32,000 nucleotides of DNA, taken from contig NZ_CP147990.1 in the NCBI RefSeq assembly GCF_037902255.1, positions 3,090,001 to 3,122,000 on the forward strand. Reading direction: 5' to 3'. Source of the stretch: Candidatus Electrothrix sp. GW3-4 (GTDB taxonomy: Bacteria; Desulfobacterota; Desulfobulbia; Desulfobulbales; Desulfobulbaceae). The first letter of the stretch is position 1, and each line of letters starts with the position of its first letter. Shown one piece after another: positions 5,715 through 9,706 of the stretch. The notes beneath the pieces are model-generated. The model saw only the letters and a list, made by a program, of their open reading frames with translations. It had not been told where the DNA came from and ran no database searches. The position numbers were made by a program, and so were the translations under genes.

Positions 5715-5734
5715 GGGCACGGCGCGCCGTGCCC
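5715..5734. repeat. Perfect 20-bp GC-rich palindrome GGGCACGGCGCGCCGTGCCC between the SIR2-like and STAND genes
   Basis: Read directly from the sequence. It begins immediately after the SIR2-like TAA (5712-5714) and includes the GTG at 5729. Confidence 0.95.
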
Positions 5735-8700
5735 CTACGAAAAACCAATGCGTTCAGAGAAAATATGATAAACACCGACAACCCCTATATCGGCCCCCGC
5801 TCCTTTACCCGGCAAGAGGCTGACCGTTTTTTCGGGCGCGAGGCAGAGGCTGCCGACCTGCTTTCCCTGGTCATTGCCGAGCGGCTGGTGCTTTTTTATG
5901 CCCAGTCCGGGGCTGGCAAGACCTCGCTCATTAACACCTCCCTGATTCCCGGTTTGGAAGAAAACGGACGGGCGGTGCTGCCGGTGGGTCGGGTGGGCGG
6001 CGAGCTGCCTGTCGATATCGCGGAGGCGGACAATATCTTTGCCTTCAGCCTGATGTCCCAACTTGATCAGGGCGGGACTGACCCGGCTCTGCTTGCCCGG
6101 CTGGAGCTGAGCGCCTTTCTCCGGGATCTGGTCAGCTCGGACGGGCAAACCTATAGGTATGAGCTGCCGGATAAAAACGAGCCGATCCCTGACAACCCCG
6201 AAGACGGACCGATCTGTGTGCTGATCATTGATCAGTTTGAAGAGATTCTGACCGCCCACCCGGATCGTTGGCAGGACAGGGCTGGATTTTTCCGCCAGCT
6301 CAACCGAGCCATGCAGGATGATCCCAGGCTGTCCGTGGTCCTGTCCCTGCGTGAGGATTATGTGGCCGCTTTGGAACCCTATGCGCCACTGCTGACTGAC
6401 CGGATGCGGGCCCGCTTCTACATGGAACGCATGGGACGCGGGGCAGCCCTAGCTGCGGTGAAGAGACCTGCTGAAAAGGCAAGCAGGCCCTTTGCGCCCG
6501 GAGCTGCCGAGACCTTGGTGGATAACCTGAGCCTGATTCGTTCCGCCCGCAGCTCGGAACCACGCCCCGGTCAGTACATCGAGCCGGTCCAGTTGCAGGT
6601 GGTCTGCTTTCAGCTCTGGCGCAATCTACCGTCGGGAGAGGAGATCACCACGGAGCAGGTCAGTAGGATCGGCAATATTGATCATGCCTTGGCGGACTTT
6701 TATGAGCAGGCGATGGCTGAAACCTTGCTGACAAGTGGGGGTTCTGAACTGGAGCTGCGGCAGTGGTTTGAGCGCAGGCTGATCACCGAGGCAGGCACGC
6801 GAGGCACGGTTTTTCAAGGGGAAACTCATTCCGGGGGCATGGAGAATCAGGTAGTGCGCTTGCTGGAAGATCGCTTTCTGGTTCGAGCTGAGAGCCGCTC
6901 CGGCGCGGTTTGGTATGAGCTGGTCCATGACCGTTTTGTGGAGCCGATTCTTCAGGCCAATCAGAAATGGATGGAGACCCAAGGGCCGCTGTTGCGGGAT
7001 GCCTTGGCTTGGCTGGATACCAACAAGACAAACCGGAGTCTGCTCTATACCGGGGAAAAGCTGGCAAAGACCTTGGCGGAGGTGGACGGACAAACAGTGC
7101 CGGACCCAGTGGTTGCTGATTTCCTGCAAGACTGCAAAGGAAGACAGGCTTGGTTGGATGAGAAGGCGGCGGCGAACAGGAGGTTCCGCAGGTGGTTCAA
7201 GGTAGCGGTGGTGGTTGCTGTTGTGGCAGTGCTGACGAGTTTGTGGGCGTGGCAAGCTACAAACAAGGCCAAAATTGCCGAACAGCAGGCATTAACTTCT
7301 CAGGAGAAAACAGAAAAAACATTGAGTCGTCTTCAACAAACCGAGGCACTGAATACAGGCATGGCCCTCAATGCCAAGGCTGAGGCGGCGGAGAACAAGG
7401 GCAGCAGGCTGTATGCGCATCTTTATTCCCTTCATGCCTTGACAAAGTTGTTGCCGAAAAATGAGCCATATTACCAGGAGGCCCTTGTTCGGGCACAGGC
7501 TAATCCAGTGCCGTTGCCTGCGTTTATTGGTCATCATGATGACCGGGTAAACAGCGTTGCCTTTTCCCCGGACGGGCGTTTCTTCGCTGACAGTTATGAC
7601 AAAAATATAGTCATATGGGACACAATAACTGGTGAACGTTTGCATACCTTAGCGGGGCATGCGGATGAAGTGAACAGCGTTGCATTCTCGCCTGATGGTT
7701 TATTGCTTGCGTCCGGTTCAAATGACAAAAGCATTGGCATCTGGGACATACATACCGGTAACCGTCTAAAAGTATTAGAAGGACATACCGACTCGATTGG
7801 TAGTATTTCCTTTTCTCCAGACGGTCGTTTACTTGCTTCATGTTCAAAAGACAAGACGATAGGCATCTGGGATGTGCAAACCGGGAAACGTCTACATACC
7901 TTGGCAGGACAAAGCCAAGTGACCAGAGTAGCCTTTTCTCCAGACGGCAGAACAATTGCTTCCACCTTCTATGATGGAACCATCGGCATCCGGGATGTAC
8001 ATACTGGCAAACGCTTGCAGACCTTAGACGGATATACAAGTGTCCTACTCAGTATTGCTTTTTCTCATGATGGCCGAACTCTTGCCGCTGGTTCTTTCGG
8101 AACGATTGACCTCTGGGATATAACAATCGGCAAACGTTTGCGGACGATTAAGCGTGATGGCACTTGGATGATTACCAGCGTTTCTTTCTCGCCAGATGGT
8201 CGAGCAGTTGCATCAGGCAGTTTTGGCAATATCATAACGGTCTGGGATGTTCAAACGGGCCAGAGCCTGCAAACGCTACAAGGAACAGCATCTGGACGCA
8301 GCATTGCTTTTTCGCCGGACGGCCAGACTCTTGTCTCTTCCGGTTCTTGGAACAATACAGCAGGACTCTGGGAAATAAATCCTGGCAGGCTTCGCGACTT
8401 GAAAGGACACGCTGGGCGCGTGACAAACATATGGTTTTCTCCAGACAGTCGTGCCATTGCTTCTGTGGCAAAAGATAAGACCCTCGGTACCTGGGATGTG
8501 GCAACAGGCCGACGCTTACAGAAAATACCTTTACGGGAAATGACAGGAATGGATTATGTGCTCTTTTCTCCAGATGGCCGCATGTTCGCTGCTGGCTCAT
8601 ATGGCAGCAACAGCATTCGTCTTGGGGAAGTGTCCACAGGAAAATGGTTGAGAAACCTTGAAGGGCACACCAAGGAGATAGATAATTTTGCTTTTTCCTC

Positions 8701-9706
8701 GGATAACCGATTTCTTGCCTCCGCAGCTTCAGATAAGACCATAAAAATATGGGACGTGCAGACAGGAGTATGCCTGCGGACTCTGCCTGTAGAAGACGAG
8801 GTTGAAACCAGTATATCTTTTTCGCCAAATGGTCGCCTCTTTGCTGCTGGCTTAAAAAACAAAACCATCAACCTTTGGGATAATACCACAGGAAAGCGTT
8901 TACAAACCTTAAAAGGGGTCAGCGGGGTAAGCACTTTTTCCTCGGATAGTCGCCTGCTCGCTGTCTCTGATTCAACCGATCACACTATCAGCATCTGGGA
9001 TATATCTACTGGTCAACGTGTGCAAACTTTGAAAAGGCATAAGGCTTGGGTTGATCATCTCGTATTCTCATCAGATAATCTTCTCCTTGCCTCCAGCTCT
9101 ATGGACAAGACCATCGCCATCTGGGACGTGAAAACCGGTAAACGTGTGCGCACCCTGAAAGAAAACATTGCTTCAGAGGGCAGCATTGCTTTCTCCCCGG
9201 ACAATCGCTTCCTCGCCTTCACCACCGACGACAACACCGTCGTCCTCTGGGATTTAGAACCCGCAATCAACGAATTCTCCGGCATCTCCCTTGACGAAAA
9301 CGGCGAGTACAAAATTGACCTGGATACCCTACCCTACAAACTGGAAGGCCTCGAACTCAAACCCATCGAGCAGCAACAAAACACCCCGGACAAACCCGCC
9401 CGCTGGAGCCGCTACCACCCCTTCCACTGGCTGCCCGCCGCCGAAAAAGGCGACAGCAACGCCATGCTGCAAATCGGCATCATCTACGACCGCAACAACG
9501 ACATCGCCCGCGCCCTGCCCTGGTACGGAAAGGCCATCAAGGCCGGTAATGAGCAGGCCCAAAAACAACAGGACATCCTCCTCCACTGGCTGGAGGACAA
9601 GGAAAACTGGCAGACCGTGCCCGGCCCGTTTCGTACCACCTTCTGTAAAGCAAAAGTGGCGTTTGAGCTGCCTGAGAAGGTAGCGGATCTGTGCGAAGAG
9701 CAGTGA
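5729..9706 (+). CDS. STAND-type P-loop NTPase / single TM helix / 14 WD40 repeats / Sel1 repeat protein
   Basis: The N-terminus NPYIGPRSFTRQEADRFFGRE..LFYAQSGAGKTS (Walker A, K64 at 5918-5920) and Walker B VLIIDQFEE (6230-6244) are typical of the WD40-linked STAND NTPases of multicellular bacteria. A hydrophobic helix WFKVAVVVAVVAVLTSLWAW lies at 7193-7252. Fourteen FSPDG...WD repeats span 7529-9259. A Sel1-like repeat GDSNAMLQIGIIYDRNNDIARALPWYGKAIKAGNEQAQ lies at 9449-9562. The ORF opens at GTG 5729, but the ATG at 5765 (MINTDNPY...) is an equally likely start. Confidence 0.9.
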   Translation: MPLRKTNAFRENMINTDNPYIGPRSFTRQEADRFFGREAEAADLLSLVIAERLVLFYAQSGAGKTSLINTSLIPGLEENGRAVLPVGRVGGELPVDIAEADNIFAFSLMSQLDQGGTDPALLARLELSAFLRDLVSSDGQTYRYELPDKNEPIPDNPEDGPICVLIIDQFEEILTAHPDRWQDRAGFFRQLNRAMQDDPRLSVVLSLREDYVAALEPYAPLLTDRMRARFYMERMGRGAALAAVKRPAEKASRPFAPGAAETLVDNLSLIRSARSSEPRPGQYIEPVQLQVVCFQLWRNLPSGEEITTEQVSRIGNIDHALADFYEQAMAETLLTSGGSELELRQWFERRLITEAGTRGTVFQGETHSGGMENQVVRLLEDRFLVRAESRSGAVWYELVHDRFVEPILQANQKWMETQGPLLRDALAWLDTNKTNRSLLYTGEKLAKTLAEVDGQTVPDPVVADFLQDCKGRQAWLDEKAAANRRFRRWFKVAVVVAVVAVLTSLWAWQATNKAKIAEQQALTSQEKTEKTLSRLQQTEALNTGMALNAKAEAAENKGSRLYAHLYSLHALTKLLPKNEPYYQEALVRAQANPVPLPAFIGHHDDRVNSVAFSPDGRFFADSYDKNIVIWDTITGERLHTLAGHADEVNSVAFSPDGLLLASGSNDKSIGIWDIHTGNRLKVLEGHTDSIGSISFSPDGRLLASCSKDKTIGIWDVQTGKRLHTLAGQSQVTRVAFSPDGRTIASTFYDGTIGIRDVHTGKRLQTLDGYTSVLLSIAFSHDGRTLAAGSFGTIDLWDITIGKRLRTIKRDGTWMITSVSFSPDGRAVASGSFGNIITVWDVQTGQSLQTLQGTASGRSIAFSPDGQTLVSSGSWNNTAGLWEINPGRLRDLKGHAGRVTNIWFSPDSRAIASVAKDKTLGTWDVATGRRLQKIPLREMTGMDYVLFSPDGRMFAAGSYGSNSIRLGEVSTGKWLRNLEGHTKEIDNFAFSSDNRFLASAASDKTIKIWDVQTGVCLRTLPVEDEVETSISFSPNGRLFAAGLKNKTINLWDNTTGKRLQTLKGVSGVSTFSSDSRLLAVSDSTDHTISIWDISTGQRVQTLKRHKAWVDHLVFSSDNLLLASSSMDKTIAIWDVKTGKRVRTLKENIASEGSIAFSPDNRFLAFTTDDNTVVLWDLEPAINEFSGISLDENGEYKIDLDTLPYKLEGLELKPIEQQQNTPDKPARWSRYHPFHWLPAAEKGDSNAMLQIGIIYDRNNDIARALPWYGKAIKAGNEQAQKQQDILLHWLEDKENWQTVPGPFRTTFCKAKVAFELPEKVADLCEEQ
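7529..9259 (+). repeat. 14 tandem WD40 coding repeats (about 40-44 codons each; two predicted 7-bladed propellers)
   Basis: The protein-level unit GHxxxVxSVAFSPDGRxLASGSxDKTIxIWDVxTGKRLxTL recurs 14 times. Short nucleotide strings such as ttttctccagacgg also recur. Confidence 0.9.

Follow-up and report, generated by a model that had tools for sequence, protein, structure and literature searches.

A stretch of 32,000 nucleotides from Candidatus Electrothrix sp. GW3-4 (Desulfobulbaceae; RefSeq assembly GCF_037902255.1, contig NZ_CP147990.1, positions 3,090,001 to 3,122,000), hereafter the window, encodes on its forward strand a protein in which an nSTAND1 NTPase is followed by a hydrophobic helix, 14 WD40 blades, and a Sel1-like tail. 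We put at roughly 55% the probability that the protein serves a cable-bacterium-like member of the Desulfobulbaceae as a bitopic receptor in the inner membrane, belonging to a conflict or cell-death system of the STAND (NOD) type and signaling from outside the membrane to the inside. The computational results that carry this reading are the order of the domains, a transmembrane (TM) segment with its charge bias, the extracytoplasmic domains that replace the WD40 blades in homologues, the pairing and fusion of SIR2-like proteins with nSTAND1 proteins, and the association of a second partner, a protein of the FGE-sulfatase/C-type-lectin fold (FGS), with degenerate SIR2-like proteins.

The open reading frame (ORF) at 5729–9706 was verified. 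Its true start is probably the ATG at 5765 rather than the GTG at 5729, because homologues open with MxxxxxNPYVGPR, because in public gene calling the identical protein was started at this ATG, giving 1313 amino acids (aa), and because the GTG sits within a perfect 20-nucleotide (nt) palindrome. Pfam matched nSTAND1 (PF20703) to aa 19–405 with 127.6 bits against a cut-off of 27.1. Both Walker motifs are intact, and the G/K/S and DQFEE columns are invariant in an alignment of 40 homologues. AlphaFold2 predicted a NOD-like fold for the NTPase module with a predicted local distance difference test (pLDDT) score above 90, and the best Foldseek matches of the module were the Apaf-1 structures 3shf and 3sfz; a sequence search of the PDB with the NTPase returned no matching chain. 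Thirteen Pfam WD40 stretches were found from about aa 600 to 1190 (E 5e-106), and an AlphaFold2 model of aa 509–1325 (model 2, mean pLDDT 85) contained 56 strands, or 14 blades, at aa ~599–1175, which probably form two seven-bladed propellers. A linker predicted to be disordered connects the blades to a tail of seven helices. Pfam made no Sel1 call for this tail and returned weak TPR matches alone (E 0.03), and phmmer matched it to the PDB sequences 4bwr (E 1.7e-11) and 8sxq (E 3.1e-11). Together, the Pfam, AlphaFold2, and phmmer results bear out the layout of NTPase, 14 WD40 repeats, and Sel1 repeat that had been given in a preliminary description made from the sequence alone. Recent amplification of the WD40 repeats was ruled out, as Tandem Repeats Finder detected no DNA-level repeats in 7200–9706, and no reverse transcriptase or diversity-generating retroelement (DGR) was found in the window.

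The hydrophobic segment, WFKVAVVVAVVAVLTSLWAW, occupies aa 489–508 (nt 7193–7252), exactly where the preliminary description had placed it, and this region holds the best 19-mer of the protein on the Kyte-Doolittle (KD) scale (2.09; runner-up 1.33). A run of 17 residues without D, E, K, R, N, Q, H, or P, the longest in the protein, falls within the 20-residue segment. Five Lys and Arg residues (net charge +3) are found in the 15 residues on its N-terminal side and two (net charge +1) on its C-terminal side, in agreement with the basic N-flank and weaker C-flank noted earlier. When the protein was shuffled at constant composition, 528 of 5000 shuffles (10.6%) gave a 19-residue peak of at least 2.09. 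The peak of the single sequence is thus within chance; its significance was dropped as an argument for a TM helix, and the case therefore rests on conservation at the same position in homologues.

Structure prediction placed the segment in a long helix. In an AlphaFold2 model of aa 13–724 built with 40 homologues (model 1, mean pLDDT 86), an unbroken helix of 67 residues spans aa 460–526 and contains the segment, and in model 2 the helix extends to aa 556; the stalk helices are residues 2–48, 52–65, and 71–83 of that second model. As modeled, a helix of nearly 100 residues cannot sit wholly within a compact bundle. The models therefore did not put the segment confidently inside a soluble bundle, a placement that the preliminary description had named as counting against a TM helix. 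Because the predicted helix is long and continuous and the homologue consensus of the stalk carries alanine at heptad spacing, the stalk is suggested to form a coiled-coil dimer or oligomer.

Homologues were collected with two queries. The N-terminal 592 aa of the protein found 2,194 proteins, and the NTPase module found 26,959 cluster representatives, 3,465 of them with E ≤1e-30, so that any mechanism found for a family this large would apply widely. The comparison below used 247 returned sequences that are not phylogenetically independent, of which 231 continue for at least 120 aa beyond nSTAND1. If a 19-residue stretch with a KD value of at least 1.6 directly followed nSTAND1, the protein was scored as having a TM segment. 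This was the case for 214 of the 231 homologues, whose uncharged cores are 15–29 aa long (median 22 aa). The mean number of Lys and Arg residues in the 15-aa flanks of these 214 is 4.9 on the N-terminal side and 1.8 on the C-terminal side, with the N-flank exceeding the C-flank in 204 proteins, equaling it in nine, and falling below it in one (Wilcoxon p 1e-35, uncorrected for relatedness). Arg is at position −1 of the core in 171 of the 214, and an RR pair was found in the 14 aa preceding the core in 156 and in the 15 aa following it in 16. The sequence of the core is not itself conserved and hydrophobicity at its position is, as expected of a membrane anchor. Both the segment and its charge asymmetry, whose conservation the preliminary description had proposed to check, are accordingly kept in the family. 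The RRFRRWFK motif was also considered as an internal twin-arginine (Tat) signal; this was rejected, as the Arg cluster of homologues abuts the core directly and RR-x-hydrophobic-hydrophobic is found in only 59 of the 214.

The domains that take the place of WD40 after the helix are the strongest evidence for topology. WD40 repeats follow the TM segment in 105 homologues and precede it in none. A further 105 TM-bearing homologues without WD40 were scanned for domains, and the domain order was mapped in ten individual proteins, in which the census domains sit C-terminal to the helix. The main domains of the census were FGE-sulfatase (14 proteins), PD40 (12), DPPIV_N (10), SH3_3 (5), peptidase M14 (5), and M23 (3), together with the sensor domains dCache (3) and CHASE3 (2) and single cases of 4HB_MCP, PASTA, muramidase, CBM9, and BNR/sortilin. 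Of these domains, dCache, CHASE3, PD40, M23, M14, SH3_3, PASTA, muramidase, and CBM9 are of extracytoplasmic type. Both dCache and CHASE3 are established ligand-sensing domains. The homologues with these two domains have a second TM segment near the C-terminus followed by a basic tail, an in-out-in arrangement like that of chemoreceptors and sensor kinases. FHA, a cytoplasmic module, was present in 29 census homologues and is N-terminal in the one case mapped (P0024, aa 28–93).

Seventeen homologues have no TM segment at the position, and twelve of these were scanned. Cytoplasmic enzymes directly follow nSTAND1 in eight of the twelve: SIR2_2 in four, peptidase C25 in two, HisKA_3 with HATPase in one, and CHAT in one. 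Comparison of this set with the census thus indicates that the TM segment accompanies envelope-type domains and that its absence accompanies cytoplasmic ones. As the NTPase needs ATP, it must be cytoplasmic. On these grounds it is highly probable that the N-terminus is inside and the C-terminus outside, with the NTPase in the cytoplasm and the propellers beyond the membrane. The central prediction of the preliminary description, a cytoplasmic NTPase with about 800 aa of repeats outside, is supported in this way by the conserved TM segment, the charge bias, and the types of domain found after it. One of the homologues without a TM segment, P0164 (1429 aa, nSTAND1-WD40), keeps an ARRLRRL motif and has a charged, Ala/Glu-rich coiled-coil helix at the TM position; from its sequence it looks like a natural soluble version.

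Partner genes were examined in a collection of species-level genomes, which supplied 80 loci, most of them from Chloroflexota. In about 76 of the 78 informative loci, the gene immediately upstream of nSTAND1, in the same orientation, is a SIR2_2 homologue. Residues 21–328 of the SIR2-like protein in the window are 36% identical to the C-terminal half of a protein (P0153) in which nSTAND1 and SIR2 are fused, which makes the SIR2-nSTAND1 pairing a functional one. Two types of SIR2 partner were distinguished, one with the canonical Gly, Asn, and Asp and the other with Ser, Ser, and His/Tyr/Phe at these positions. The canonical Asn/Asp pair is present in 27 of the 63 loci scored. The window protein belongs to the second type: the Asn and Asp of the canonical TTNxD motif are missing, and Ser takes the Gly position of GAGxS. 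Thus, the SIR2-like partner named in the preliminary description is conserved upstream, but its copy in the window is without the canonical residues.

Of the 36 loci whose SIR2 is non-canonical, 19 have an FGS gene upstream; of the 27 whose SIR2 is canonical, none does (Fisher p 2e-6). The FGS proteins of other loci carry TIR, CHAT, EAD1, or EAD7 at their N-termini. The sequences suggest that SIR2 shifted from enzyme to adaptor in the degenerate subfamily. The FGS protein of the window has no signal peptide and no TM segment and is therefore presumably cytoplasmic. Its upstream neighbor, the HetE-N-like ORF, appears to be the counterpart of the effectors linked to FGS elsewhere, here encoded as a separate gene. 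The direct Pfam match of this ORF was weak (E 0.019), the identical public gene carries the precomputed annotation PF20701, and the Candidatus Electronema orthologue, 67% identical, is annotated as HetE-N. The ORF has an N-terminal hydrophobic stretch rich in small residues (VTTTIVAAIALGASQGL), and the protein may be a pore-forming effector. At another locus (L026, 2902–5913), a single 1003-aa protein directly upstream of the nSTAND1 gene is a fusion of CHAT, FGE-sulfatase, and SIR2_2, by which the three partner modules are all linked.

The same cassette order, HetE-N, FGS, Uma2, SIR2_2, and nSTAND1, is found on the Candidatus Electronema aureum chromosome and on a public contig. The HetE-N and FGS genes are part of the cassette. 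Both were missing from the partners listed in the preliminary description. The nuclease that it did list, the Uma2-family protein, fared worse: by tblastn in 84 compared loci, Uma2 was detected only in three Candidatus Electronema loci (L001–L003). It was rejected as a partner and is probably an unrelated, lineage-specific insertion rather than a component of the system. The Uma2 stop codon overlaps the SIR2 start codon, and there is one copy of Uma2 in the window and two in Electronema. In one of the Electronema loci (L001, 8001–13868; Candidatus Electronema aureum, OW818638.1), the STAND protein ends at 553 aa, shortly after the TM helix. Its WD40 fragments are broken by insertion sequence (IS) elements and a DDE transposase gene, and the upstream cassette is intact. 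The sensor part of this orthologue is decaying in that species.

For the living cell, we infer the topology, the ligand, the direction of signaling, the adaptor role of SIR2, and the immune or suicidal outcome. The cytoplasm would hold the nSTAND1 NTPase (aa ~13–460) and the basic juxtamembrane helix, the membrane would hold aa 489–508, and the periplasm would hold the stalk, the two propellers, and the Sel1 tail. An envelope ligand would bind the propellers or the Sel1 tail; it could be a component of a phage that is adsorbing or injecting, a product of envelope damage, or a signal from a neighboring cell of the filament. Binding would cluster the receptors, and clustering would drive ATP-dependent oligomerization of the cytoplasmic NTPase domains. 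Since the TM helix and stalk would lie between the propellers and the NTPase, control would depend on proximity or on the long continuous helix and not on docking in the manner of Apaf-1. The assembled NTPase would then engage the SIR2-like protein encoded just upstream, probably an adaptor in this subfamily, in which the canonical Asn/Asp pair is lost, and an NADase in others. The adaptor would recruit or release the FGS protein with its death effector, which would be HetE-N here and TIR, CHAT, or an EAD elsewhere.

Several observations weigh against this reading. In addition to the chance-level peak of the single sequence, none of the homologues scored has a segment less hydrophobic than that of the window (KD 2.09 compared with typically 2.5–3.2), and a rough sum on the Hessa scale gave about +1.5 kcal/mol. 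The relatedness of the homologues lowers the weight of their counts. Two of the homologues without a TM segment bear WD40 repeats, so that in this family WD40 can function on the cytoplasmic side as well. The loss of the canonical Asn and Asp makes NADase activity of the SIR2-like protein doubtful. Some of the domains found after the TM segment are cell-wall hydrolases (M23, M14, and muramidase), which resemble effectors and argue against uniform outside-in signaling, and the cytoplasmic FGS protein, with a domain of the "antigen-receptor" type, could be the real sensor. PADLOC found no known defense system at the locus, and the flanking genes are housekeeping genes.

The same topology would also serve signaling from inside out, in which the FGS protein or the NTPase module senses in the cytoplasm and the oligomer organizes or activates the WD40/Sel1 part in the periplasm, which would serve as an envelope-directed effector, anchor, or scaffold. 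Its outputs could be tethering to peptidoglycan, disruption of the envelope, or signals to neighbors through the shared periplasm of the filament. Peptidoglycan hydrolases and binders after the TM segment of homologues (M23, M14, muramidase, SH3_3, and PASTA) would fit such an arrangement, as would the FGS "antigen receptor" that the cassette encodes in the cytoplasm. In the accessible sections of Kaur et al. (2020, PMC7159879), Sel1 repeats are listed among peptidoglycan-associating domains that usually have a TM segment before them, such post-TM domains are treated as cell-wall effector domains, and TM segments with extracellular domains are described in iSTAND, GAP1-N2, and EACC1 conflict systems. 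Nevertheless, we consider inside-out signaling, the foremost rival reading, unlikely. The recognizable death effectors (HetE-N, TIR, CHAT, and canonical SIR2) are all cytoplasmic, and most of the modules after the TM segment are of the binding or sensor kind, among them the ligand-sensing dCache and CHASE3; outside-in signaling is favored because such modules (WD40, FGS, PD40, dCache, and CHASE3) predominate there.

A non-immune role, as a transmembrane signaling ATPase that monitors the envelope, cell-cell contact, or development in filamentous bacteria with the SIR2-like protein as a regulatory partner, strikes us as quite improbable. The family is concentrated in filamentous Chloroflexota and cable bacteria, one homologue is an nSTAND1 fused to a histidine kinase, and both the housekeeping surroundings and the catalytically non-canonical SIR2-like protein of the window would suit such a role. 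It is at odds, however, with partners that carry TIR, CHAT, EAD1, EAD7, or HetE-N, which are hallmarks of conflict and cell death (Kaur et al., PMC7159879 and PMC8195603), and with retention of the canonical Asn/Asp pair, as in defense NADases, at the 27 loci noted above. Highly variable C-terminal modules and the IS-driven decay of the Electronema orthologue likewise fit fast-evolving conflict genes. Finally, a buried or oligomerization helix in a wholly soluble, cytoplasmic protein like Apaf-1, to which the modest, shuffle-matched hydrophobicity of the single sequence and the rare TM-less WD40 homologues could be ascribed, is very improbable given that hydrophobicity is conserved at the position and sequence is not, that the median core of 22 aa fits one membrane span, that the Arg cluster abuts the core on the N-terminal side only, that the downstream domains of homologues are extracytoplasmic and in some cases followed by a second TM segment, and that the segment lies within a predicted helix of at least 67 residues.

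Among known proteins, Apaf-1 is the closest in structure. It has, like the protein in the window, a NOD-type NTPase, then a helical domain, and then a double WD40 propeller, and it accounted for the best Foldseek matches of the NTPase-plus-propeller model (3shf, 3sfz, and 3j2t; E about 1e-15, 8e-16). Apaf-1 is soluble, and its propellers, which fold back onto the NTPase, bind cytosolic cytochrome c. Here, in contrast, the predicted TM helix and stalk part the two modules, and autoinhibition by docking would be impossible. Because the NTPase begins at residue ~7, the STAND protein has no N-terminal effector; there is no CARD as in Apaf-1, and the effectors are on separate genes. In its predicted arrangement, the protein also resembles bitopic receptors with the N-terminus inside and the C-terminus outside (ToxR/CadC, PknB-type kinases, and anti-sigma factors) and, as an analogy, Toll-like receptors. 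Common to them are a large cytoplasmic output domain, one TM segment, and an external ligand-binding domain, and signaling probably proceeds by ligand-induced oligomerization. The output here would be a STAND NTPase rather than a DNA-binding domain, kinase, or TIR, and the likeness is functional only, with no sequence relationship.

Close in domain content are the nSTAND1-FGS conflict systems described by Kaur et al. (2021, PMC8195603), who named nSTAND1. These systems have the same NTPase family and the same accessory domains (FGS, EADs, TIR, CHAT, and FHA), and both they and the family studied here are enriched in multicellular bacteria. As far as the accessible part of that paper describes them, effector or EAD, NTPase, and FGS are in one polypeptide, with no TM segment mentioned. 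In the window, FGS plus effector would constitute a separate cytoplasmic protein, a SIR2-like gene lies between it and the NTPase gene, and the NTPase carries the predicted TM helix and periplasmic WD40/Sel1 part. Avs5 (AVAST type 5; bioRxiv 10.1101/2025.07.08.663546) combines SIR2_2, nSTAND3, and TPR/Sel1 repeats and depletes NAD+ upon phage infection, sharing with the present system a SIR2_2-type domain, a "novel STAND" NTPase, a repeat sensor, and Sel1-like repeats. Avs5 is, however, one soluble polypeptide that has SIR2 fused at its N-terminus and senses phage proteins in the cytoplasm, whereas here the SIR2 is a separate non-canonical gene and the NTPase is nSTAND1, not nSTAND3. None of the Avs/AVAST models of PADLOC matched, and the protein falls outside Avs, its putative sensor being beyond the TM helix. 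The "TM regions" class of bacterial NACHT proteins (Kibby et al., bioRxiv 10.1101/2022.07.19.500537) belongs to an NTPase clade different from nSTAND1. In the literature searched, we found no experimental characterization of a STAND protein of the single-pass, propeller-outside type.

The general idea of extracytoplasmic STAND parts has already been floated (Kibby et al.; Dore et al., PMC10907252), and the protein belongs, as an ordinary member, to a large Pfam family, so the suggestion in the preliminary description that such a receptor would follow a different logic is not wholly new. Dore et al. predicted periplasmic CLec domains on some STAND proteins, and the nSTAND1 proteins among their DGR targets were predicted to be cytoplasmic. 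A 2026 survey of bacterial STAND sensors (PMC12803255) covers sensors of the WD40 and FGE types; neither "membrane" nor "periplasm" turned up when its text was searched. Our literature search found no paper naming both cable bacteria and WD40. We did not find described the near-universal single TM segment of the clade, the conserved SIR2-like partner, or the link between effector-FGS proteins and degenerate SIR2. The analysis also yields a defined three-gene module of effector-FGS, SIR2-like, and nSTAND1-TM-sensor genes.

To our knowledge, the characterized prokaryotic STAND defense proteins (Avs1–5 and bNACHT) all detect their trigger inside the cell, as animal and plant NLRs do. If the propellers are periplasmic, the family would show that the NOD oligomerization switch can be operated from across a membrane; a cell could sense infection or damage before the phage genome enters, and trouble in neighboring cells could be sensed within filaments that share a periplasm, such as those of cable bacteria. 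As a tentative extension, to which we give somewhat less than even odds, thousands of STAND proteins may be transmembrane pattern-recognition receptors, in which a periplasmic propeller, lectin, or Cache domain would bind a ligand derived from phage, envelope, or neighbor and cause clustering through a single helix and NOD assembly, upon which a SIR2-like protein, as enzyme or degenerate adaptor, would release FGS-borne TIR, caspase-like, or HetE-N effectors. If this extension is true, the topology of Toll-like receptors would be paired with the engine of NLRs, in the first case of extracytoplasmic sensing by a STAND immune system.

Coordinates of the cassette genes and of the predicted parts of the STAND protein in the window
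Feature	Position	Strand	Details
HetE-N-like small protein, 155 aa	2747..3214	+	candidate membrane-targeting death effector; first gene of the cassette
Stand-alone FGE-sulfatase/C-type-lectin-fold (FGS) protein, 256 aa	3286..4056	+	Pfam PF03781, E 4e-46
Uma2-family putative endonuclease	4081..4695	+	Pfam PF05685; PADLOC PDC-S03
SIR2_2-like partner, 339 aa	4695..5714	+	Pfam PF13289, E 3e-18; TTSFH replaces TTNxD, HG kept
Perfect 20-nt palindrome GGGCACGGCGCGCCGTGCCC	5715..5734	.	read from sequence; between SIR2 stop and STAND start codons
nSTAND1-TM-WD40-Sel1 gene	5765..9706	+	1313 aa from ATG 5765; maximal ORF begins at GTG 5729
nSTAND1 NTPase module	5783..6943	+	Pfam PF20703; Walker A AQSGAGKTS, Walker B LIIDQFEE
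Juxtamembrane helix, predicted cytoplasmic	7106..7192	+	within AlphaFold2 helix aa 460-526; ends in basic cluster NRRFRRWFK
Predicted single transmembrane helix	7193..7252	+	aa 489-508; N-terminus in, C-terminus out
Predicted periplasmic helical stalk	7253..7522	+	helix aa 510-556, then two shorter helices
14 WD40 blades	7523..9253	+	Pfam WD40 and AlphaFold2 strands, pLDDT mostly >90
Sel1/TPR-like C-terminal helical repeats	9431..9700	+	aa 1235-1324; seven helices (AlphaFold2), phmmer matches

For the STAND protein, the only PADLOC match was driven by WD40 (HEAT-ARM_XIII), and for the SIR2-like protein there was a marginal ThsA match only; with no match for the NTPase, assignment to a known defense system was rejected. 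A megablast search against plasmids found nothing, and an origin from a plasmid or mobile element was likewise set aside. Downstream, an AIM24-family gene (10210–11214) adjoins the STAND gene, and genes for an M23 peptidase (22817–24202) and a Fic/DOC adenylyltransferase (28018–29100) follow further along; as far as checked, these three showed no linkage to the cassette in other loci. On the reverse strand, an ORF of 262 aa (879–1667) with a signal-peptide-like start and a Pro-rich C-terminus lies between DUF179 and cobalamin genes, and the precomputed Pfam list of the identical public gene names no family for it. The palindrome ahead of the STAND gene is GC-rich, lies directly 3′ of the SIR2 stop codon (TAA, 5712–5714) and 30 nt 5′ of the STAND ATG, and has no T-run after it. 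From its sequence, it could form an RNA hairpin that affects coupling of the SIR2 and STAND genes, or it could be an element like the repetitive extragenic palindromic (REP) sequences.

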